Part shown: one piece after another, positions 113 through 12,175 of the stretch
Numbering within the stretch: position 1 is the stretch's first letter
How the letters are laid out: the number at the start of each line of letters is the position of its first letter
From: Candidatus Acetothermia bacterium
Lineage (GTDB): Bacteria; Bipolaricaulota; Bipolaricaulia; M55B111
Length of the DNA: 12,175 nt
Direction: 5' to 3'
NCBI GenBank assembly: GCA_046543235.1
Contig: JBKGZT010000039.1
Location: forward strand, 1 to 12,175
Translations under genes and position numbers: made by a program
The notes under the pieces: model-generated
The model's input: only the letters and a program-made list of their open reading frames with translations
Told to the model about the DNA's origin: nothing
The model's database searches: none

Positions 113-841
113 TTGTCTCAGGTGAAGATACTCGGCATCTTCGACAACGAAACCTCGGAGGAGGATCTCGTAGCAGGCTGGGGGTTTTCCGCCTTGATCT
201 CTAGTTCAGAAAGAGCCCTGCTCTTCGATGCCGGCTCCGACGTTAAGATACTGGAAGAAAACATGGAAGAGCTTGGCGTAATTCCCGGCGACCTGGACGG
301 TATATTCCTGTCTCATCCGCACTGCGATCATGTAGGTGGCCTTTCAGCAGTGCTTAGTCAAAATTCCGACCTTAGCGTCTATGTTACAAAGGGATTCCCT
401 CAGGAAACAAAGAACAAGGTAAGGGATTACGGAGCGGAGCTCGTGGAAATCGCCGGGTCTGAGGAGATTTTCGAAGGTTGGCATTCGACGGGGGAAATGA
501 TCTCGGATTATCATGGCAGTGATTTACCGGAACAGGGCCTGACGGTTGAGGGCGATTCCGGGCCCGTCGTGATTTCCGGCTGCGCCCATCCCGGCATATC
601 GAAAATAGTCGGGAGGGCAAAAGAAATCACTGGCGAACCTCCCCGCCTGGTGCTCGGTGGATTTCACCTCGGCTCTAAAAGCAAAGGAGAAATTAGGGCT
701 ATTCTAAAGGATTTTGCGGGCTACGGAGTCCGGGGTGTCGCTCCAACTCACTGTACCGGAGAGAAGGCCAAAGCTATTATGAGGGTTGAGTACCGGGAGG
801 ATTTCGTAGATTTCGGCGTCGGGGAGCAAATCAGGGTTTAA
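113..841 (+). CDS. MBL-fold metallo-hydrolase (COG1237-like)
   Basis: HxHxDH motif SHPHCDHVGG, plus GWGFSAL, LLFDAG, GCAHPG, GGFH and HCTG motifs typical of this subfamily. TTG start preceded by AGGGAGG SD at 101-107. Confidence 0.9.
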   Translation: MSQVKILGIFDNETSEEDLVAGWGFSALISSSERALLFDAGSDVKILEENMEELGVIPGDLDGIFLSHPHCDHVGGLSAVLSQNSDLSVYVTKGFPQETKNKVRDYGAELVEIAGSEEIFEGWHSTGEMISDYHGSDLPEQGLTVEGDSGPVVISGCAHPGISKIVGRAKEITGEPPRLVLGGFHLGSKSKGEIRAILKDFAGYGVRGVAPTHCTGEKAKAIMRVEYREDFVDFGVGEQIRV

Positions 842-870: not shown

Positions 871-1027
871 CCCTGGTGCTGGGTCTCGGGTTTTCGGAGA
901 AGGTAGTTTTTGTTTGAAGTAGTTTCCTTATAACCCCCGTCCAGAAGGGCGCGGATATTGACTCTTTGGGAAACGACCCCCTCGGTTTTTCCATTTGAAA
1001 GATCACCCAGCAGCCACTAGAATAGGG
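871..1027 (+). ncRNA. Candidate 6S RNA-like rod-shaped ncRNA
   Basis: Nested pairings by eye: TGCTGGGT(877-884)/ACCCAGCA(1005-1012), GTTTCC(922-927)/GGAAAC(969-974), apical CGTCC(938-942)-AGAA-GGGCG(947-951), with an unpaired U-rich central region. No credible ORF in the gap. Family assignment is inference. Confidence 0.4.
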
Positions 1028-1035
1028 CAGAAGAG

Positions 1036-1551
1036 GTGGCAGTTATGGAGAGAGTTCGAGTGAAAGCTCTACTGGTCGATACGTCTAATAACGCTCCCGT
1101 CGTTCTCCTGGAGGGTGACGAGGACCGTAAGGTCATGCCGATATGGATTGGTCAAAACGAGGCTCTCGCAATTTCCCTCAAGCTTCAGGAGAAGGAGTTC
1201 GAAAGACCTCTGACTCACGACCTTTTGAAGTCCGTTCTGGATAAGTTGGATCAGGATCTGGAAAGGGTCGTGATCGACGACCTGAGTAACAAAACTTACT
1301 ACGCGACCCTTGTTTTGAAGGGTCCGGAAGACCGGGAGCTGAAGGTCGACTCTCGACCCTCCGACTCGATCGCCCTCGCTCTGCGAACGGACAGCCCCAT
1401 CTTCGTCGACGAAGAAATATTTAGGGATGTAGCCATGGAATCTCCTTTTGACGAAGATATCGAAGACGAAGAGGCCGGTGAGGAGTTTGAAGACTTCCTC
1501 GATCAGCAGATGGAATTGAGGAAGTTCAAGGAGTTTACCGACGATAATTAA
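1036..1551 (+). CDS. Bifunctional nuclease family protein (DUF151/DNase-RNase)
   Basis: Signature motifs PIWIGxxEA, RPLTHDL and DSRPSDSIALALR; acidic C-terminus. Start is GTG 1036 or ATG 1045. Confidence 0.92.
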   Translation: MAVMERVRVKALLVDTSNNAPVVLLEGDEDRKVMPIWIGQNEALAISLKLQEKEFERPLTHDLLKSVLDKLDQDLERVVIDDLSNKTYYATLVLKGPEDRELKVDSRPSDSIALALRTDSPIFVDEEIFRDVAMESPFDEDIEDEEAGEEFEDFLDQQMELRKFKEFTDDN

Positions 1552-1577
1552 TCCAACCAGAAATATATCACCCCAGA

Positions 1578-2381
1578 ATGCCAGATAAAGAAAGACTGGA
1601 CGTGCTTTTGCGTGACAGAGGCCTCTGCCGGAGCAGGGAAAAGGCCAAGCGTGAAATAATGGCGGGAAACGTCTACGTCTCGGGCCAGCTCAGTGATAAA
1701 CCGGGGGAACAGGTGCCTCGGGAGTCGGAAATATCTATTGAAAGGGACGAAAAACGTTTCGTCAGCCGTGGTGGGGAGAAGCTGGAAGGGGCGCTTGAAG
1801 GTTTCGACGTGGACGTCAGGGGGAAGAAGGTCCTTGATATAGGAGCTTCCACAGGGGGTTTCACGGATTGTCTCCTCAAAAACGGTGCCGAGAAAGTCCA
1901 CGCGCTGGATGTGGGGAAGGGTCAGCTGGATTGGCACCTACGCCAGGACGAGAGGGTCGTACCGATCGAAGGTAAAAACGCCAGGTACCTCGAAAAAGAG
2001 GAGATCGGAACCAGCGTCGACCTCGTCACGATAGATGTTTCTTTTATTTCTCTGGAACTGGTCCTTCCCAACGCGAAAAACGTTCTGGGGAAACACGGCG
2101 AGATAATTGCCCTGGTCAAGCCCCAGTTCGAAGCCGGTCCGGAAAAAGTGGAGGACGGCGGCGTGGTAACAGACCCGGGAGTTCATCTGGGGGTGCTGGA
2201 GAAAGTTCGGGACGTCGGGGAAGAAACCGGACTCTACCTCGTCAATTGTACTTATTCTTCCATCCAGGGTAAGTCGAGCGAAAATATCGAGTACTTCTTC
2301 CACCTTTCTACCTCAACAGAGCACGATCCGTTCCAGGATCTTCGCGGAGTTATCGAGGATGCCCACGAGAATTTCTCCTGA
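1578..2381 (+). CDS. tlyA: TlyA family rRNA (cytidine-2'-O)-methyltransferase
   Basis: N-terminal S4 domain (KERLDVLL), FVSRGGEKL, DIGASTGGFTD, DVGKGQL, DVSFISL, KPQFE and NIEY motifs. Confidence 0.96.
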   Translation: MPDKERLDVLLRDRGLCRSREKAKREIMAGNVYVSGQLSDKPGEQVPRESEISIERDEKRFVSRGGEKLEGALEGFDVDVRGKKVLDIGASTGGFTDCLLKNGAEKVHALDVGKGQLDWHLRQDERVVPIEGKNARYLEKEEIGTSVDLVTIDVSFISLELVLPNAKNVLGKHGEIIALVKPQFEAGPEKVEDGGVVTDPGVHLGVLEKVRDVGEETGLYLVNCTYSSIQGKSSENIEYFFHLSTSTEHDPFQDLRGVIEDAHENFS

Positions 2382-2420: not shown

Positions 2421-3029
2421 ATGAAGACCGTCGCTCTCACCGGAGGAATTGCTTCCGGGAAAACCGTAGTCCTGGACGAGATCGACCGCAACTTTGACGG
2501 CGTGGTGACGATTCAGGCGGATGACCTCGCCAAGGAGATATACCAACCTTCGAACCCCAATTATGAAGACGTTATCGACCTGCTCGGACCGGATGTAGCG
2601 AATGAAAGTGGAACGGTGGATTCGGAAAAAGTAGCGGATATCGTCTTCGATGACAAGGAAAAGCTGCGGAAGCTGGAAGAAGTTGCTCATCCCTACGTGG
2701 TCAGGAAAATAGAGGAATTATCCGGTTATTACCGAAAAAAAGGTACGGAGCTTCTTCTGGTTGAGATCCCGCTCTTCTTTCAATCCTCCCGGATCGACAG
2801 AAACTCCTTTGACCTCGTCCTGCTTGTGACCGCGAGCAGGGGTAGGCGGGTTGATAGGTTAATGGATAGGGATGGATTAAATCGATCCGAAGCCGAACGC
2901 AGAATCGATCTTCAGGCGCTGCCGAAGGACGCCCGAGAAAAGGCAGATCACGTCATAGAAACCAATCGGGACGTCGAGGAGGCGAGACGAAAAGCGCGGG
3001 AATTCGCGTCTGAACTACTGGGTGCTTAA
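2421..3029 (+). CDS. coaE: Dephospho-CoA kinase
   Basis: N-terminal LTGGIASGKT P-loop, IVFDD..L.KLEEVAHP, EIPLFF, RLMDRDG..RI..Q motifs; strong SD GGAGGAG. Confidence 0.93.
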   Translation: MKTVALTGGIASGKTVVLDEIDRNFDGVVTIQADDLAKEIYQPSNPNYEDVIDLLGPDVANESGTVDSEKVADIVFDDKEKLRKLEEVAHPYVVRKIEELSGYYRKKGTELLLVEIPLFFQSSRIDRNSFDLVLLVTASRGRRVDRLMDRDGLNRSEAERRIDLQALPKDAREKADHVIETNRDVEEARRKAREFASELLGA

Positions 3030-4486
3030 ATTAGCGACCTCTTTTTACATATCTTTTCCACGAACTCCCTATCGTTGTAACTAATCCATTCGTCTCCGAC
3101 TATCTGGTAGTCTTCGTGCCCCTTGCCCGCGATTAACAGGACACCCTTCGGAGGGAGTTCTACTACCGCTCTTTCAATGGCTTCCTTACGCTCCGGTATG
3201 ACCTGATATTCCGACTCCGCCTTTATTCCGTGTTCTATCTCGTGGAGAATCTCCAAACGGTCTTCCTTTTTGGGGTTGTCGTCCGTCAGATAGATGAAGT
3301 CCCCGTATTCGCTGGCTATTTGGCCCATTGCCGGCCTCTTCCCCCTGTCGCTTTCCCCGCCACAGCCGAATACTACCGATACGCTTTTGTAAAGAGCTGC
3401 TAGCTCCCGGAGCACTGCTCGAAACGCTCCGGGATTATGGGCAAAATCTACGTAGATATCGGCCCCGTTTTCCAGCTCCAGTCTCTCCATTCGGCCGGGT
3501 AAGCTACTTGCTCCGCGGAGTCTCTCCGCTACTTTCGTTGGCTCCATACCACTTGCTAAACCCACGGAAAACGCGGCAAGTGCGTTGTAAACGTTGTACC
3601 TTCCAAAGAGCCCCAGCTCAACCTTGGCCTCGCCCCGGGGCGAAGTAACCTTAAAGGAGACCCCGGAACTGGTTTTCCGCAGTTTATCGCCTACTACATC
3701 GGCGTTATCCGTTAGCCCGTAACGAAGGGTCCTCGCTTCGGTGATTTTTTCTAATCTATCGCCGAAATCTTCGTCGCCGTTTATTATCGCGGTGTCTCCT
3801 CTTGTAAGGTATCGGAAGAGTTTCTCTTTTGCTCTTTTGTATTCCTCCATCGAACTGTGATAGTCCAGGTGATCCCTGGTCAAGTTGGTAAATACCCCGA
3901 CGTCGAAGTTAACACTGTTAACCCGATTGAGCTCTAAGCTATGAGAACTTACTTCCAGGACGAAGTTTCTAGTACCCCTATCCCTGAGCCGCCTGGCGAA
4001 TTTCTGGATCTCCGGGGATTCCGGGGTCGTAACCGGCTCCGTGATGCCGGGAGTAACCTCGTTAGTTAGCGTATTGAGAGCACCCGTTTCTTCTTCACCC
4101 AGCACTCGGGTTGACAGGTGGGCGGTGGTCGTCTTTCCATTTGTTCCCGTAATCCCCACGGTAAACAGCGAGGTCGTCGGTGCTTCGTAAAAAGAACTGC
4201 TGAGACTGGCCATTTCCTTTCTGCTATCTCTTACCTTTACGTAGGTGTGGTTTGCCACTTCGACGTCTACAGGATCCTTCTGACCTACTATCGCGACCGC
4301 ACCCCTTTTAACGGCTTCTTTGATGTAATCGTGGCCGTCGGCGTTTTCCCCGACTACGGCTATAAATAGGTCCCCCTCCTCTACTGACCGCGAATCGTAG
4401 GAAATCCCCCGAATTAGGTTCCTCGTATCACCGCGAACGTATTCGTAATTGGCTTCTTCAAGGACCTCGGATAGCCGTTTTTTCAA
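3026..4486 (-). CDS. murE: MurE UDP-N-acetylmuramoyl-L-alanyl-D-glutamate--diamino acid ligase
   Basis: YDSR, DGHDY, GITGTNGKTT, TTPES, EVSSH, FTNLTRDHLDYH, PGRME, DFAHNP, FGCGG, DDNPK and AGKGHE motifs. TTG start with GAGGTGG SD overlaps the upstream stop (TTGA). Confidence 0.96.
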   Translation of the reverse strand: MKKRLSEVLEEANYEYVRGDTRNLIRGISYDSRSVEEGDLFIAVVGENADGHDYIKEAVKRGAVAIVGQKDPVDVEVANHTYVKVRDSRKEMASLSSSFYEAPTTSLFTVGITGTNGKTTTAHLSTRVLGEEETGALNTLTNEVTPGITEPVTTPESPEIQKFARRLRDRGTRNFVLEVSSHSLELNRVNSVNFDVGVFTNLTRDHLDYHSSMEEYKRAKEKLFRYLTRGDTAIINGDEDFGDRLEKITEARTLRYGLTDNADVVGDKLRKTSSGVSFKVTSPRGEAKVELGLFGRYNVYNALAAFSVGLASGMEPTKVAERLRGASSLPGRMERLELENGADIYVDFAHNPGAFRAVLRELAALYKSVSVVFGCGGESDRGKRPAMGQIASEYGDFIYLTDDNPKKEDRLEILHEIEHGIKAESEYQVIPERKEAIERAVVELPPKGVLLIAGKGHEDYQIVGDEWISYNDREFVEKICKKRSLI

Positions 4487-6407: not shown

Positions 6408-7166
6408 TTATTCTCTTTCCCCGTAGAGTTCCGTCAGCTTGTGGAGGAATTCCTTCGTCCTATCGTGTTCGGGGTTGTTGAAGAACTGGGTCGGCGTGCC
6501 CTGTTCAACGATTTTGCCCTTTTCCATAAAGATTATCTCGTCCGAGACGGAGTTTGCAAATCCCATTTCGTGGGTAACCACCAGCATCGTCAATCCCGAT
6601 TTTGCCAGATCTTTCATTACTTCGAGGACTTCTCCGATGAGCTCCGGATCCAGTGCCGAAGTGGGTTCGTCGAAGAGTATTATCTTCGGTTCCATCGCGA
6701 GTGCTCTGGCTATTCCCACCCTTTGTTTCTGCCCACCGGAAAGCTGAGCCGGATAGGACTCTGCTTGATCGGATAATCCAACCCTTTCCAGTTCTTCGTA
6801 ACCGACACTTTTTGCCTTATCCTTATTTAAGCCTTTTACCTTCCTCAGACCGAGTGTAACGTTTCCGAGCGCGGTAAGGTGCTCGAAGAGGTTGAAATGC
6901 TGGAAGACCATACCGATGTTTTGCCGGAACCTGTTTATGTCCTTGGATCCACCGGTCACCTCCTCCCCTTCTAGCCAGACCCTTCCCTGGTCGGGTTTGG
7001 TTAATTGATTGATACAGCGCAAAAGAGTGCTTTTTCCCGTGCCCGAAGGTCCGATAATCACCTTCGTCTCGGCCTGATTCATTTCGAACGAGACGCCTTT
7101 CAGCACTTCTTCGTTCCCATATTTTTTGTAAATATTTTCTACCTTCAGCAGTTTTTCAGTGGACAT
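6408..7166 (-). CDS. Polar amino acid ABC transporter ATP-binding protein (GlnQ family)
   Basis: Walker [29 protein letters not shown], Walker [14 protein letters not shown] and VTHEMGFA. Start set at ATG 7166 (MSTEKLL) behind AGGAGG SD rather than the ORF-track 7232. Confidence 0.95.
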
Positions 7167-7575
7167 CTTTTTCCTCCTGGGTCCGATTATAAAATACCCA
7201 ATAAATATAAGGTAAATGAGTGAAAATACCAACAGCTACTTTATCTGTCAGCATGAAAATTTCTACCGAAAAAGGACTTCTATCAGGGACGGGGGGAACC
7301 AGTAAAAATCGGTCGAGAGATTTACAATTTTTTTACAAAATCTAAATAACATTAAATGTAGAAAAACCGTTCGTTCACCTCTAAACTAGTTATTTGTTGG
7401 TGGTCATTTATTGGCGTTGTACGGGCTTTTGTATTTTAGCCTGCAAAATGGTCCCATTGTCGTTAATATTAAGTCGCTGGTCAGGGGTTTGTCCCGCGAG
7501 TTTTATCGATTTTTTAGCTAATTCGTTCCAGACTCAGTTAGTTCGATTTAAGAGTTCAAGTTTAAACGAGGTTAA

Positions 7576-9549
7576 ATGAAAAGCCGGGAGGATATTATGC
7601 AAAGAGCAGGTATTAAGGCTTTTATTCGGAGTTCTTTTGGAATCTTGGTTTTGTTGATTTCTATTCAGCTTCTATTCTTCTCTGGTCATGCCCTAGGGCA
7701 ATCCGGTGAGGAATTTCTCAGTTTGGCGGAAGTGGAAAAGGGTATGGAAGGAACCGGAAAGACCGTAGTAGAGGGCAAGGATATATCGACTTTTTCGGTA
7801 GAGGTCGTCGACGTAATCGATGAACCCGGCCAACTCCAGGATTTCATCGTCGTCCGCGCGAGCGGTGAACCCGTGGAGCAGTCGGGAGGAGTAGCTCAGG
7901 GAATGAGCGGTAGCCCGGTTTACATCGACGGAAAATTAATAGGTGCTCTGAGCAGATCAGCTCAATGGAGCAAGGACTCGAGCAACCCGATTGGTTTGGT
8001 CACCCCCATAGGAACAATGCTGGAACTCCTTGAGGATCCGGGTCCGGAGGACGTAAGAACTGACGAATCCGATACGAGAACTAGTTCTGTCGAGGACTCC
8101 CTGGAAGAGATCTTCCCCGGCAAGGACGTGGAGTTTGCTGACTCCCCTGGGGCCGAGAACTCGTCAGGTGGAGGGGAGGACCAGTTGCTTTTCAAGAAAT
8201 CCGTAACGCCCGTGATGGTTTCCGGCCTCTCAGAAGCCTCTTTAAAGGCACTTAAAGATGGGATAGGGGACTCGAACCTGGATAAAGTGTTCGACCCGCT
8301 GGCTACCCTCGGTAGCAGTTCTGTGGATAACCTGAAGGACGGCTTGTCAGGAAACGGTCTCGACTTTCACAAGCTTCAGGGTTCTGAGTCAGGCTCCGAG
8401 GAGACGATGGAACTTCAGCCCGGCGGGCCGATGGGGGTCTCGCTGGCGAAAGGTGATCTATCTATCGGAGCTTTAGGTACCGTTACTTATCGCGACGAGG
8501 ATCAGGTTCTGGGGCTGGGGCACCGGTTCTTGTTGAGCGGGGCCACCGATTTCCTCCTGACGGAAGCTGCAGTGCTGGATACGGTGAAGAGCTATAAGGC
8601 TTCGTTTAAGCTGGGTGACGTCTCAAACGAAGTGGGTGCAGTTACCCAGGATCGAACCCAGGGAGTGATGGGGGTAGTCGGTGAAGAAACGAACCTGTTC
8701 GAGACGGATCTACGGGTATCCCCAAGAGGTGTTGAGGGGAGAAAAAACTTCAACGCCGAGCTCGTTAAGTCCAGTGACTTGATCGGTTCCCTGTCCTACG
8801 CGACCATTCGGGAAGCGATCGACCGTTCCTTGAATAGGCAGGGCCCGGGAACGATCAAGGTCGATTACGAAGTGACCGGGGAGGACCTGCCGGAGCCGCT
8901 GGAGAGGACTGACATCTTCTTTTCCTCTACGGAAGCTTCCTTTCTGCCCTCGCTTCAGGTGGCTCTATTCATCGATGCCCTGGCCCACAACCCGTTCGCC
9001 GACCCCGATCTTTCCAACCTTGAGGCGGACGTTTCATTTGAAAGGGATATCAGGTCGGGCCAGATTACTTACTTTGCAACAGATAAAAGGAACTACGCCC
9101 AGGGAGACCTCCTCGCCTATCAGGTAAAAATTCAGAACTATCGGGGCGAGCTAGTGGAAAAGACTGGAGGATTCCAGCTTCCTCAGGATCTCCCCCCCGG
9201 TAATTACGTGGTCGCGGTTTACGGCGGACCCAGGCCTGCCAACGTAGCCCCGCCCGAAAACCTCGAAAACTTCGAGGATTGGATAAGTTACTTGAACAGC
9301 TTAAAAAGCTACGAGAGCCTCTCCGTCGAGGTACTGAAGCCGTTCGAGGAAAGCGTGGTCCCGATGGCTGGTGCCGGTTACAGGTACGAATCGGCCGCCC
9401 GCGTCAGCGAAAAAATGGACGAAAGGGTAATTTACGGCAGCCAGGCCCTCTCAATAAACGTATCAAAGTCCGAGGAGAGCTCTTCCGAAGAAGAAGTCGA
9501 AATCGAGGAAACCGATTCGGGAGAAGAGGACGGAGAAAAATCGGAGTAG
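7576..9549 (+). CDS. Exported SpoIVB/peptidase S55 domain-containing protein
   Basis: Signal-peptide-like N-terminus ending ..GHALG; GGVAQGMSGSPVYIDGKLIGA catalytic-Ser motif; GTVTY...LGLGH His motif. Alternative start ATG 7597 (GGAGG SD). Confidence 0.85.
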   Translation: MKSREDIMQRAGIKAFIRSSFGILVLLISIQLLFFSGHALGQSGEEFLSLAEVEKGMEGTGKTVVEGKDISTFSVEVVDVIDEPGQLQDFIVVRASGEPVEQSGGVAQGMSGSPVYIDGKLIGALSRSAQWSKDSSNPIGLVTPIGTMLELLEDPGPEDVRTDESDTRTSSVEDSLEEIFPGKDVEFADSPGAENSSGGGEDQLLFKKSVTPVMVSGLSEASLKALKDGIGDSNLDKVFDPLATLGSSSVDNLKDGLSGNGLDFHKLQGSESGSEETMELQPGGPMGVSLAKGDLSIGALGTVTYRDEDQVLGLGHRFLLSGATDFLLTEAAVLDTVKSYKASFKLGDVSNEVGAVTQDRTQGVMGVVGEETNLFETDLRVSPRGVEGRKNFNAELVKSSDLIGSLSYATIREAIDRSLNRQGPGTIKVDYEVTGEDLPEPLERTDIFFSSTEASFLPSLQVALFIDALAHNPFADPDLSNLEADVSFERDIRSGQITYFATDKRNYAQGDLLAYQVKIQNYRGELVEKTGGFQLPQDLPPGNYVVAVYGGPRPANVAPPENLENFEDWISYLNSLKSYESLSVEVLKPFEESVVPMAGAGYRYESAARVSEKMDERVIYGSQALSINVSKSEESSSEEEVEIEETDSGEEDGEKSE

Positions 9550-9558
9550 GCTTAAGCC

Positions 9559-10968
9559 ATGCTGGGTCCGGAGGAGATCGCAGAGGCAACCGGCGGTTCT
9601 CTGTATAACCAAAGGGAAGTAGAAGTTAGGGGTTTTTCAATAGATACGAGAACGATCGGGCGGGGGGAAGTCTTTGTCCCCCTGCCCGGTTCAAATACCG
9701 ACGGCCACAAATTTATCGGAGAGGCGTACGAGAAAGGTGCGGTAGCTTCCCTCGCCTCTTCCGAGGAATACCTCCGGGAAAGTTGCCCCAACATGGTAGT
9801 TGTCGAGGATACCGAAGAGGCACTTTTACGGATGGCCCGGCATCACCGGGAATCCTTCGATGTACCGGTTGTGGGGGTAACCGGAAGCTACGGCAAGACC
9901 ACGACCAAGGAACTCCTTTCTTCGATACTCTCTACCGCCGGCAGAGTGCACAAATCCCCCGGAAACTACAACACGGAATACGGACTTCCCCTTGCGCTGC
10001 TGGAGATGGAGAAACCGGTGGATTTTGCCGTATTGGAGCTTGGCCTTCAGCACCCCGGGGACGTCGAAGTTCTCAGTAAAGCGGCGAAACCGACTACGGG
10101 CGTAATTACCGGCGTCGGCAGTGCTCATTTGGGCAATTTTTCGGGGGTTAGGGAAATAGCCCGGGAAAAGTTAAAACTGACCGCCGGGATGGAAGCGAAT
10201 GGCACGTTGGTGATTAACGCTGACTCCCCGCCACTTTTAAGGGAAGCCACTGGAAGTTCTGGATACAGGACCGTGAAATTCGCCAGGGAAAACCGGGATG
10301 AGGCGGATTACTGGATTTCCGGCCTTCGAATAGCCGGGACCGAAGGAACCAAGATTACCATAAATAAGAAGGAAAGCGGTGGGGGTTCCTGCTCTGAGGA
10401 TTTCCCCCTGACGCTGGAGACCGGTCTTAACTCTTCGGGTAATGCCGGAAACGTCCTTGCTGCCGTTTCCACCGTCCTGGAGATGGATCTGGAGGGTGTC
10501 GATTTGATAGAAGGCGTAAAATTGGAACCACTCCCTCAGCGCCTTAGCCCGAAGAAATTCCCCGGGGGTACGGTAATTGACGATACTTACAACGCCAACC
10601 CCGATGCCACCCGGAACGCCCTGAGTTACCTGTCGGAACTAAAACCGAATGGAAAGAAGATCCTGGTCTTTGGGGACATGATGGAACTGGGAGAGGAGTC
10701 CAGAAGTCTCCACAGGGGGCTTGCTGGCCCCGTCGAAGACGCCGGCCTGGACGAGGTGCTAGTGACCGGCGAACAAGCCAACGCCCTGGCCGAGGAACTG
10801 AGAAAAAGAAATTTCGTGGCGGCGGTAAAATTTTTCGAATCGAAGTCCGCCCTGATATCGGAGCTTGAAAAGTCTTTAATCGGTCAGGAGAACGTCGTGC
10901 TGGTTAAAGGTTCTCGCGGTATGGGTATGGAGAAAATCGTGTCCTATTTGGTGAAAGACTCAAGCTAA
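9559..10968 (+). CDS. murF: MurF UDP-N-acetylmuramoyl-tripeptide--D-Ala-D-Ala ligase
   Basis: SIDTR, DGHKFI, GVTGSYGKTTTKE, GNYNTEYGLP, VLELG, DDTYNANP, GDMMELG and VKGSRGM motifs. Confidence 0.95.
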   Translation: MLGPEEIAEATGGSLYNQREVEVRGFSIDTRTIGRGEVFVPLPGSNTDGHKFIGEAYEKGAVASLASSEEYLRESCPNMVVVEDTEEALLRMARHHRESFDVPVVGVTGSYGKTTTKELLSSILSTAGRVHKSPGNYNTEYGLPLALLEMEKPVDFAVLELGLQHPGDVEVLSKAAKPTTGVITGVGSAHLGNFSGVREIAREKLKLTAGMEANGTLVINADSPPLLREATGSSGYRTVKFARENRDEADYWISGLRIAGTEGTKITINKKESGGGSCSEDFPLTLETGLNSSGNAGNVLAAVSTVLEMDLEGVDLIEGVKLEPLPQRLSPKKFPGGTVIDDTYNANPDATRNALSYLSELKPNGKKILVFGDMMELGEESRSLHRGLAGPVEDAGLDEVLVTGEQANALAEELRKRNFVAAVKFFESKSALISELEKSLIGQENVVLVKGSRGMGMEKIVSYLVKDSS

Positions 10969-10995
10969 ACCGACGGGGTTTTCAGGAGGTAAAGG

Positions 10996-11415
10996 ATGGC
11001 CGTTGAAACGAGGGATATAAACGTCCGGGTTGGCCCGGACAGCAAGATGGAGGATATTACCGCGGATATCGCGGAGGTAGTCACGAGATCGGAATTGGAC
11101 GAGGGAAGCGTAAACCTGTTCGTTCCCGGTGCGACCGGTTCTATAAGCACGGTCGAGTACGAGCCGGGATTGAAAGAAGACATTCCGGAGGCTCTGGAAA
11201 GGCTGGCTCCGGAGGACATCCCGTACAAGCATCATCAGACCTGGAACGACGACAACGGCAGGAGTCACGTAAGGGCCACAATTATGGGACCCGGAACGGT
11301 GGTGCCGTTTGTAAATGGAAAACTTCAGCTCGGAAGATGGCAAAACATCGTCATCATCAACCACGATACCAGGGCAAGAGAAAGGAGGATCGTAGTTCAG
11401 TTGATCGGAGAATGA
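10996..11415 (+). CDS. yjbQ: YjbQ/UPF0047 family protein (secondary thiamine-phosphate synthase)
   Basis: DIT, FVPGATG, EYEPGL, Y.H....DDNGRSHVRA and LGRWQ motifs; AGGAGGT SD. Confidence 0.93.
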   Translation: MAVETRDINVRVGPDSKMEDITADIAEVVTRSELDEGSVNLFVPGATGSISTVEYEPGLKEDIPEALERLAPEDIPYKHHQTWNDDNGRSHVRATIMGPGTVVPFVNGKLQLGRWQNIVIINHDTRARERRIVVQLIGE

Positions 11416-11425
11416 AGACGTAGGA

Positions 11426-11938
11426 CTATTCCAAAGTGGTGACCAGGTCGTCAAGTTCCCGTCGCTGTGAATCCCCACCTGCAGATTTTGCCGGGTGGCC
11501 CACCGGAATAATGGTGAGGGGTTTCTTTTGGGTATCGAGGAGTTCTTTTACAGCTTCCTCGTCAAATGCTCCAACCCAGCAACTACCGAGTCCGAGTTCT
11601 ACGGCCGCTAGCTGCAGGTACGTGGCTGCGATCGTCCCGTCCTGAATGGAGTATAACTGTCCCCTTTCCCCGTATTTATTTTGGGAACGTTCTGCATCCT
11701 GAATAAAAGCAAAGAGGGCCGGTGCCCGTTCGATGAACTTTTGTCCATGTGCGGCCTCAGCCAGATCCTCCTTTAAACCTTTTTCTTTGATGACCACGAT
11801 CTCGTAAGACTGGAGGTTACCGGCGGAGGGTGCCGAGTTTGCTGCTCGTAAGAGTTTTTCTATCTCTTCCTCGGTTAAGGATCTACCGGTAAAAGACCGG
11901 ACCGAGCTGCGCTTCTTGATCAAATCAAAAAAATTCAT
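11426..11938 (-). CDS. Nitroreductase family protein
   Basis: KRSSVRSF, APSAGNLQ, LAAVELGLGSCWVGAF and IIPVGHP motifs. Confidence 0.93.
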   Translation of the reverse strand: MNFFDLIKKRSSVRSFTGRSLTEEEIEKLLRAANSAPSAGNLQSYEIVVIKEKGLKEDLAEAAHGQKFIERAPALFAFIQDAERSQNKYGERGQLYSIQDGTIAATYLQLAAVELGLGSCWVGAFDEEAVKELLDTQKKPLTIIPVGHPAKSAGGDSQRRELDDLVTTLE

Positions 11939-11962
11939 CTCACATCACCGCAGGACGAATGG

Positions 11963-12055
11963 ATTGGATAATAATCTGGCTGGATAACTTCAATTAATTA
12001 TATCCGAGTTAACCCTATCTGCAAGGTAGAATCTGGTTGATGAGTGGATAATAAT
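11963..12055. repeat. Cluster of TGGATAA motifs (DnaA-box-like), including an 11-nt direct repeat TGGATAATAAT
   Basis: TGGATAA at 11965, 11981 and 12045; TGGATAATAAT at 11965-11975 and 12045-12055. AGTGGATAA (12043-12051) is one mismatch from TGTGGATAA. Confidence 0.45.
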
Positions 12056-12083
12056 TTGTTTGACCCGAGAAAAGGTCTATAAT
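12056..12083 (+). promoter_or_regulatory. Putative sigma70-type promoter reading toward the window end
   Basis: TTGTTT (12056-12061), 16-nt spacer, perfect TATAAT (12078-12083). Confidence 0.45.
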
Positions 12084-12124
12084 GTAGTAACGGGATTATC
12101 GGGTTTTTGAAGAATAATTTTCGA

Positions 12125-12175
12125 GTCAAGAACCCCTCCCCAAGGGACGGGGCTTGTAGAAAAACAGCTTTAACG
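12125..12175 (+). mobile_element. Probable IS200/IS605-family element end / 5' start of an IscB omegaRNA (HEARO-like), truncated
   Basis: GTCAAGAACCCCTCCCCAAGGGACGGGGCTTG forms a bulged hairpin and matches the GTCAA-n-ACCCC...GGGGCTTG pattern I recall for IS200/IS605 ends and IscB omegaRNA 5' ends. No associated ORF is visible in the window. Confidence 0.55.

Follow-up and report, generated by a model that had tools for sequence, protein, structure and literature searches.

The window, the whole 12,175-nt stretch of DNA analysed here, comes from an uncultured member of the Bipolaricaulota (Acetothermia). It encodes housekeeping genes including two Mur ligases, a dephospho-CoA kinase, an FtsJ-like methyltransferase, an ABC ATPase and a UPF0047 protein, together with one tRNA-Ser, which is the only match in the whole window at Rfam gathering thresholds. 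The two Mur-ligase genes (3026–4486, minus strand, and 9559–10968, plus strand) are paralogues, each with the full set of three Mur ligase domains, and are found within 7 kb; the second is syntenic with the related locus L001. A 657-aa ORF (7576–9549, plus strand) matches a family only at residues 60–126 (SpoIVB peptidase S55, E 2.7e-10), and its start falls in the kilobase of lowest GC content (7001–8000; 42.8% versus ~51–56% elsewhere). The UPF0047 ORF (10996–11415, plus strand, E 1.3e-32) is overlapped by a 172-aa ORF on the minus strand (10960–11478) that has no family and is probably no gene. The last host gene before the feature described here is a nitroreductase-family gene (11426–11938, minus strand; Pfam PF00881, E 1.5e-33), whose protein has best matches at 77% identity and Candidatus Bipolaricaulota matches at 64–68%. 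The exact sequence of the window's last gene was found on five contigs, the longest of which is 12,175 nt, equal to the window. The sequence therefore truly ends at 12175, and the window is most probably the whole contig, stopping 51 nt into the feature.

Related loci were collected by alignment of nitroreductase orthologues, which yielded 599 pattern matches; 591 of them were confirmed, and the 80 best were retained. Six of these best 80 of 591 (L001–L006) have 58–74% nitroreductase identity, are located on Bipolaricaulota/Acetothermia-type MAG contigs, and have the UPF0047 and Mur ligase neighbours in common with the window. All six encode rpiA (ribose-5-phosphate isomerase A) divergently from the nitroreductase gene, followed in five by a 385-aa gene, NfeD and an SPFH gene; the L006 contig ends earlier. 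The rpiA start in L001 is a TTG at L001 9780. A tblastn search of the window with RpiA gave no match. The rpiA leaders of the relatives vary strongly in sequence and in length, from ~70 to 280 nt. The leader in L004 (3840–4060, minus strand of the locus) is ~270 nt long and contains a long imperfect hairpin with no convincing Rfam family. L006, the most distant relative, encodes an extra 239-aa ORF between rpiA and the nitroreductase gene (996–1715, plus strand), and the nitroreductase–rpiA intergenic region has thus accepted other insertions.

Intergenic DNA of the window aligns with L001 up to ~12122 and includes a 39-nt block that is 92% identical to L001. By this homology with the nitroreductase–rpiA intergenic region, the 5′ flank of the feature is host DNA and not part of a repeated unit. 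A conserved promoter-like site (TTGTTT, 16 nt, TATAAT; 12056–12083, plus strand) was located in a six-way alignment and points into the feature. TATAAT (12078–12083) and TTTG (12055–12058) are invariant in the window and L001–L005, and the spacer varies. In the relatives this site is presumably the rpiA promoter. A promoter scanner called the L001 equivalent with 10/12 positions and did not call the plus-strand site of the window, where the first hexamer scores 3/6. The nitroreductase gene has a divergent promoter-like site of its own (TTGCAG, 16 nt, TATAAT; 11997–12024, minus strand), with hexamers that are invariant or nearly so in the six aligned sequences; it was not called by the scanner. 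The only call made in 11850–12175, on the minus strand, is at chance frequency (1 found, 0.8 expected) and was not used. The segment 11997–12083 forms a compact divergent promoter region in which the two hexamer pairs are conserved and the spacers and leaders are free to vary.

The feature occupies 12125–12175. It begins with GTCAAG (12125–12130), and CTTG at 12153–12156 is followed by an A-rich stretch before the window ends. CCCC/GGGG and TCCC/GGGA pairs, a CAA loop and one bulged C account for 12133–12152. The letters, coordinates and pairs described in the first-pass annotation were confirmed by a sequence check and by the RNA minimum free energy (MFE) fold of 12110–12175 (plus strand), which reproduces all of the pairs, CAAG/CUUG included. 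This fold has −17.9 kcal/mol, compared with a shuffle mean of −12.2 (sd 2.6; z = −2.15), and 8 of 200 shuffles fold at least as well. On its own the hairpin is only mildly unusual. The motif is single in the window (1 match at ≤3 mismatches, 0 expected).

IscB-type elements are transposon relatives of Cas9. HEARO ORFs have been equated with IscB, with RF02033 matches reported in 65% of 5′ UTRs and few nearby TnpA genes (Goltsman et al., PMC9755519). The first-pass annotation had proposed that a HEARO-like IscB omegaRNA begins at 12125, and alignment to the Rfam model does start there, though weakly. In a permissive Rfam scan of 11900–12175, HEARO (RF02033) on the plus strand was the sole family at E ≤ 10, with model position 1 on base 12125. 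The match reaches the last base and is flagged as 3′-truncated. It scores 13.3 bits (E 1.2 in this blind 276-nt search) and covers model positions 1–44 of 211; with 21% of the model present the score is necessarily low, and the gathering score of 83 is unreachable. The conserved GUCA, CCCC, AA, GGGGC and GAAA positions of the Rfam HEARO alignment agree. A control scan of the L004 intergenic region returned irrelevant eukaryotic families at 12.7–17 bits (E 2.5–8.3), and the 13.3-bit match taken alone is at noise level.

A comparison of the 51-mer with 72,556 plasmids (7.3 Gb) by blastn gave poor matches to two records (E 3 and 0.9). The first, at E 3, is to Polaromonas sp. JS666 plasmid 2 (NC_007950.1), with 27/32 bases identical over query bases 1–32. 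It falls in an unannotated spacer, followed on the same strand by an annotated iscB as the next gene. A full-length HEARO was found at this site with 117.1 bits (gathering score 83); the blastn match begins on its first base, and this HEARO lies 355 nt upstream of, and co-directional with, the iscB gene, which encodes RRXRR and HNH domains. The probability that one of two matches would land on HEARO base 1 by chance is, we infer, negligible. The second match (Ruegeria; 23 nt, query bases 24–46, E 0.9) is inside a hypothetical protein and was treated as chance. The 51-mer had no blastn match in phages and matched nothing longer than 13 identical bases in the 80 fetched nitroreductase loci.

Reference 5′ ends were obtained by tblastn with the Polaromonas IscB, which identified 90 plasmid records, and 16 environmental ones were taken. 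A full HEARO (101.8–164.6 bits) is located directly upstream of iscB on the same strand in 12 of the 16, the others being L083, L092, L093 and L097. In L083, from Cupriavidus necator plasmid p1, there is no HEARO at the gathering score, and a group II intron domain (65.5 bits; 457–542, plus strand) is found at the expected HEARO place upstream of an iscB-like ORF. In L089, from a Paraburkholderia plasmid, the Burkholderia sRNA ncS54 (48 bits; 204–278, plus strand) is located ~160 nt upstream of the HEARO and oriented into the guide. The first 32–48 nt of 13 reference 5′ ends (the 12 plus Polaromonas), running from a GTCA start to a GCTTG-like end, were used to build covariance model R1, from which the window was excluded. 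Model R2 was built from 12 references with Polaromonas (L081) dropped because that sequence had been found through the window.

With filters off, R1 matched 12125–12156 over its full length with 30.6 bits (E 1.5e-5, a rough value, as are all E-values of these short models with shortened calibration), and the next match in the window has 12.5 bits. Over 1,152,228 bases, comprising 80 unrelated loci and the window, the window was the top match (rough E 0.0014) and L022 was next with 21.9 bits. The 13 training sequences score 26.2–43.5 bits, a range that includes the window. R1 also recovered the held-out iscB locus L092 (25.7 bits, 340 nt upstream of iscB) and a weak 5′ motif in the decayed locus L097 (14.4 bits). 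R2 gave 29.0 bits for 12125–12156 (rough E 3.8e-5 in the window and 0.0036 in 1.16 Mb), and 41.0 and 30.4 bits for the held-out L081 and L092; L022 reached 24.6 bits. The margin of the window over this best background match is 4.4–8.7 bits across the two models. The L022 site (13764–13795, plus strand) was rejected as an omegaRNA. This hairpin starts with GTCA and has TAAA as its loop. It gives no HEARO match at E ≤ 1 and is followed by an ORF for a pterin-binding enzyme and not IscB, which makes it a false positive, either a chance match or a very old relic.

According to R1 and R2, the conserved 5′ module (GTCA start, first hairpin and GGGGCUUG) is present in the window. Three separate tests, Rfam, blastn and R1/R2, converge on 12125 as family position 1, and the likeness of the hairpin region to IscB omegaRNA 5′ ends is far beyond chance. 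As the first-pass annotation had suggested, 12125–12175 (plus strand) very probably represents the initial 51 nt of a HEARO-type IscB omegaRNA scaffold, truncated by the contig end.

The first 8 nt (12125–12132) are assigned to the 5′ strand of the long-range helix P1 by the consensus structure line of the Rfam alignment. In the references the 3′ partner of P1 is a complement ending in TGAC, and that of the window scaffold is expected beyond 12175. Hairpin 1 (12133–12152) consists, in the MFE fold, of an 8-bp stem that is interrupted by one bulged C and closed by a 3-nt loop. The four outer pairs are all canonical in the R1 alignment, and among the 13 reference omegaRNAs this 4-bp helix has compensatory changes at three of its four pairs. 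Hairpin 2 (12153–12168), defined by the Rfam CS and NC lines, has a short stem, a GAAA-containing loop and one non-standard pair; in the family consensus CUUG at 12153–12156 pairs with 12165–12168. This region is variable and aligns poorly among the references. A linker towards the missing P1 3′ strand (12169–12175, truncated by the contig end) was placed by the low-confidence tail of the Rfam alignment, and by our reading of the 13 reference 5′ ends their linkers are ~2 to 20 nt. The CAAG/CTTG stem of the first-pass annotation forms in the MFE fold but is probably not a biological pairing, since the family consensus structure puts 12125–12132 in P1 and 12153–12156 in hairpin 2. GTCA is the invariant start of all 13 reference omegaRNAs and of the window scaffold. 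The GTCA at 12125 would also be the transposon boundary, because in IscB elements this boundary coincides with the scaffold start (Meers et al., bioRxiv 10.1101/2023.03.14.532601).

The host DNA immediately before the scaffold (12101–12124, plus strand) is homologous to the L001 rpiA leader and is a putative guide source through its last 16–24 nt. The guide of an IscB omegaRNA is described as lying directly 5′ of the scaffold, outside the transposon (Meers et al., bioRxiv 10.1101/2023.03.14.532601). About 17 nt of guide are reported to be functional (Kato et al., PMC9640706), and one enzyme prefers guides of up to 24 nt (Goltsman et al., PMC9755519). An origin of the guide in the 5′ flank and an assembly break at the contig end, both anticipated earlier, agree with a flank of host DNA shared with relatives and with a window as long as the longest of the five contigs.

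HEARO is absent from L001–L006 (0/6 at Rfam gathering thresholds, none in the R1 or R2 match lists). All six relatives have rpiA beside the nitroreductase gene and lack the element at the same site; they are different species, in which the exact junction is unreadable. Absence of the motif from all six does support insertion. The loss of homology at 12125 was down-weighted as a sharp insertion boundary, since similarity to L001 also fades at nearly this point in the rpiA leaders of L002–L005, and a homology break alone is therefore no proof of insertion. A TAM-like motif at the L001 site is not claimed, the species being too far apart.

No transposase, IscB or TnpB family was found among the 14 ORFs scanned in the window. 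In the 11 reference loci with a usable annotated start, iscB begins 227–355 nt after the first HEARO base; this count omits L082, which has no annotated start, and L084, whose annotated start overlaps the RNA. By analogy, an iscB start would be expected at about 12352–12480, beyond the window. IscB elements are described as mostly lacking a nearby tnpA (Meers et al., bioRxiv 10.1101/2023.03.14.532601; Goltsman et al., PMC9755519). A stop at 12175 is as expected of a contig that runs into a repeat, and the break is at most suggestive of multicopy status. A 32-position motif pattern with 26 specified bases had no match in 185,579 species genomes, a set to which the source genome evidently does not belong, and no close copy is known.

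The best explanation, to which we assign a probability of about 0.8, is that 12125–12175 is a HEARO 5′ end marking the edge of an IscB (OMEGA, IS200/IS605-related) element in the nitroreductase–rpiA intergenic region of this uncultured bacterium. Such an element would encode iscB, be transcribed, use its guide and be mobile and multicopy.

A genuine HEARO 5′ end could also belong to a decayed or non-autonomous remnant, such as an isolated piece of scaffold or a PATE-like mini-element that lacks a functional iscB. The visible part is only 51 nt long, one pair in hairpin 2 is non-standard, and protein-less PATE-like relatives of IscB and TnpB elements exist (Meers et al., bioRxiv 10.1101/2023.03.14.532601). 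Decayed loci also occur among the sampled plasmids: in L097 the iscB match is in three pieces and the 5′ motif is weak (14.4 bits), and L083 has its group II intron and no HEARO. We nevertheless consider a remnant unlikely. The 5′ module is well preserved, with 30.6 bits lying in the range of intact references and canonical outer pairs in hairpin 1; RNA and gene are kept together in 12/16 sampled iscB loci; and an assembly break better fits a longer repeated unit than a 50-nt relic.

Chance resemblance is very unlikely. Under this alternative the hairpin would be lineage-specific and belong to the 5′ leader of a host gene, rpiA or another, with a contig end unrelated to it. The relatives' rpiA leaders vary widely and can hold hairpins, as in L004, the Rfam E-value is 1.2, and a non-IscB background site reaches 24.6 bits. 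Against these points, the three separate tests place family position 1 at the same base, 12125, no frame of 12125–12175 resembles the N-termini of the relatives' RpiA proteins by our reading, and RpiA has no tblastn match. A hairpin-1 lookalike noticed by eye in the long L004 leader was set aside, as the Rfam scan of that leader gave no HEARO and only eukaryotic chance matches. It is extremely improbable that the G+C-rich hairpin, which is present on either strand, forms the right end of a tnpB element on the minus strand or terminates a convergent minus-strand gene beyond the window, two readings that the first-pass annotation had allowed: HEARO, matched on the plus strand from model position 1, is the sole family in 11900–12175, with no TnpB-type RNA family at E ≤ 10 and no tnpB in the window; the minus-strand fold of the region is at chance level (z = −0.81; 40/200 shuffles); 11850–12175 has no terminator-like site on either strand; and the next gene in 6/6 relatives is rpiA, co-directional with the plus strand of the window.

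For an IscB element edge at 12125, a mechanism can be proposed from what is known of the family. The conserved host promoter (−10 at 12078–12083) would start transcription near 12090, given the usual spacing between −10 and start, and produce a host leader of ~34 nt followed by the scaffold. The last ~16–24 host nucleotides, up to 12124, would become the guide. The scaffold (P1, hairpin 1 and hairpin 2, then nexus and pseudoknot parts beyond the contig) would bind IscB, and the resulting RNP would cut an empty, excised site matching the guide, after which recombination would restore the element. The rpiA gene would lie beyond the far end of the element and be reached only by read-through. In published work the IscB omegaRNA is encoded upstream of the ORF and transcription must enter from outside the element; where TnpA excision leaves a scarless donor joint, the IscB RNP cleaves it, and the element is thereby restored by recombination (Meers et al., bioRxiv 10.1101/2023.03.14.532601). 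By convention the scaffold side counts as the right end of the transposon and not the left (Meers et al., bioRxiv 10.1101/2023.03.14.532601), a matter of naming only.

A more specific arrangement is conceivable, though doubtful, in which the element separates the rpiA start from its conserved promoter. This housekeeping promoter would then make the omegaRNA, the guide would be the rpiA leader, and rpiA expression would depend entirely on read-through of both the omegaRNA and iscB. If true, expression of a pentose-phosphate gene would be tied to the element, and the nuclease would be aimed at all rpiA promoter alleles of the population that are uninterrupted, a drive-like situation in a deep-branching uncultured phylum.

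The feature is an ordinary further example of the well-described IscB omegaRNA family, with no observed departure from it. The case shows that 51 nt at a contig edge suffice for assignment to this family with reasonable confidence, and the assignment explains the assembly stop. It adds an instance from the Bipolaricaulota (Acetothermia), an uncultured phylum. A single full-text literature search found no paper combining IscB and Bipolaricaulota, which is no evidence of absence from published IscB catalogues. The locus also exemplifies a published view, that IscB guide RNAs rely on transcription coming into the element from the host, as a promoter conserved in six sequences points into the scaffold.

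Compared with the HEARO family (RF02033), the window shares the GTCA start, the P1 5′ strand, the C-run/G-run hairpin with an A-rich loop, GGGGCUUG and a small GAAA-type hairpin, and like the HEARO references it has a variable host flank directly 5′ of the scaffold. It differs in containing only positions 1–44 of 211 and in having, in the Rfam register, one non-standard consensus pair per hairpin. The Polaromonas sp. JS666 plasmid 2 locus (NC_007950.1, 158631–160422) matches 27 of 32 bases from scaffold base 1, but it comes from the Betaproteobacteria and not the Bipolaricaulota, its hairpin 2 is longer and its flanks are unrelated. The same plasmid encodes a TnpB-family gene (L081 1–1229, minus strand) on the strand opposite to the iscB locus, ~1.8 kb away from it. 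TnpB omegaRNAs (reRNAs) at IS200/IS605 right ends are likewise guide RNAs derived from a transposon end with the guide outside the element. They differ in having the guide on the 3′ side of the scaffold and in overlapping the tnpB end (Meers et al., bioRxiv 10.1101/2023.03.14.532601), and no such family matched 11900–12175 at E ≤ 10. The guide adaptor hairpin of OgeuIscB is also the first scaffold module and joins the guide to the nexus stem, but it is described as a single 14-bp hairpin of ~43 nt, whereas the HEARO type has P1 enclosing two small hairpins (Kato et al., PMC9640706). The window module may be equivalent to the adaptor, by position only. A parallel in architecture and proposed role is the IscB of Geobacillus stearothermophilus ISGst, in which the scaffold is at the transposon end, guide and transcription come from outside, and the excised donor joint is cleaved (Meers et al., bioRxiv 10.1101/2023.03.14.532601). 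Unlike in ISGst, the upstream gene in the window is divergent, and a promoter rather than gene read-through would thus drive the omegaRNA.
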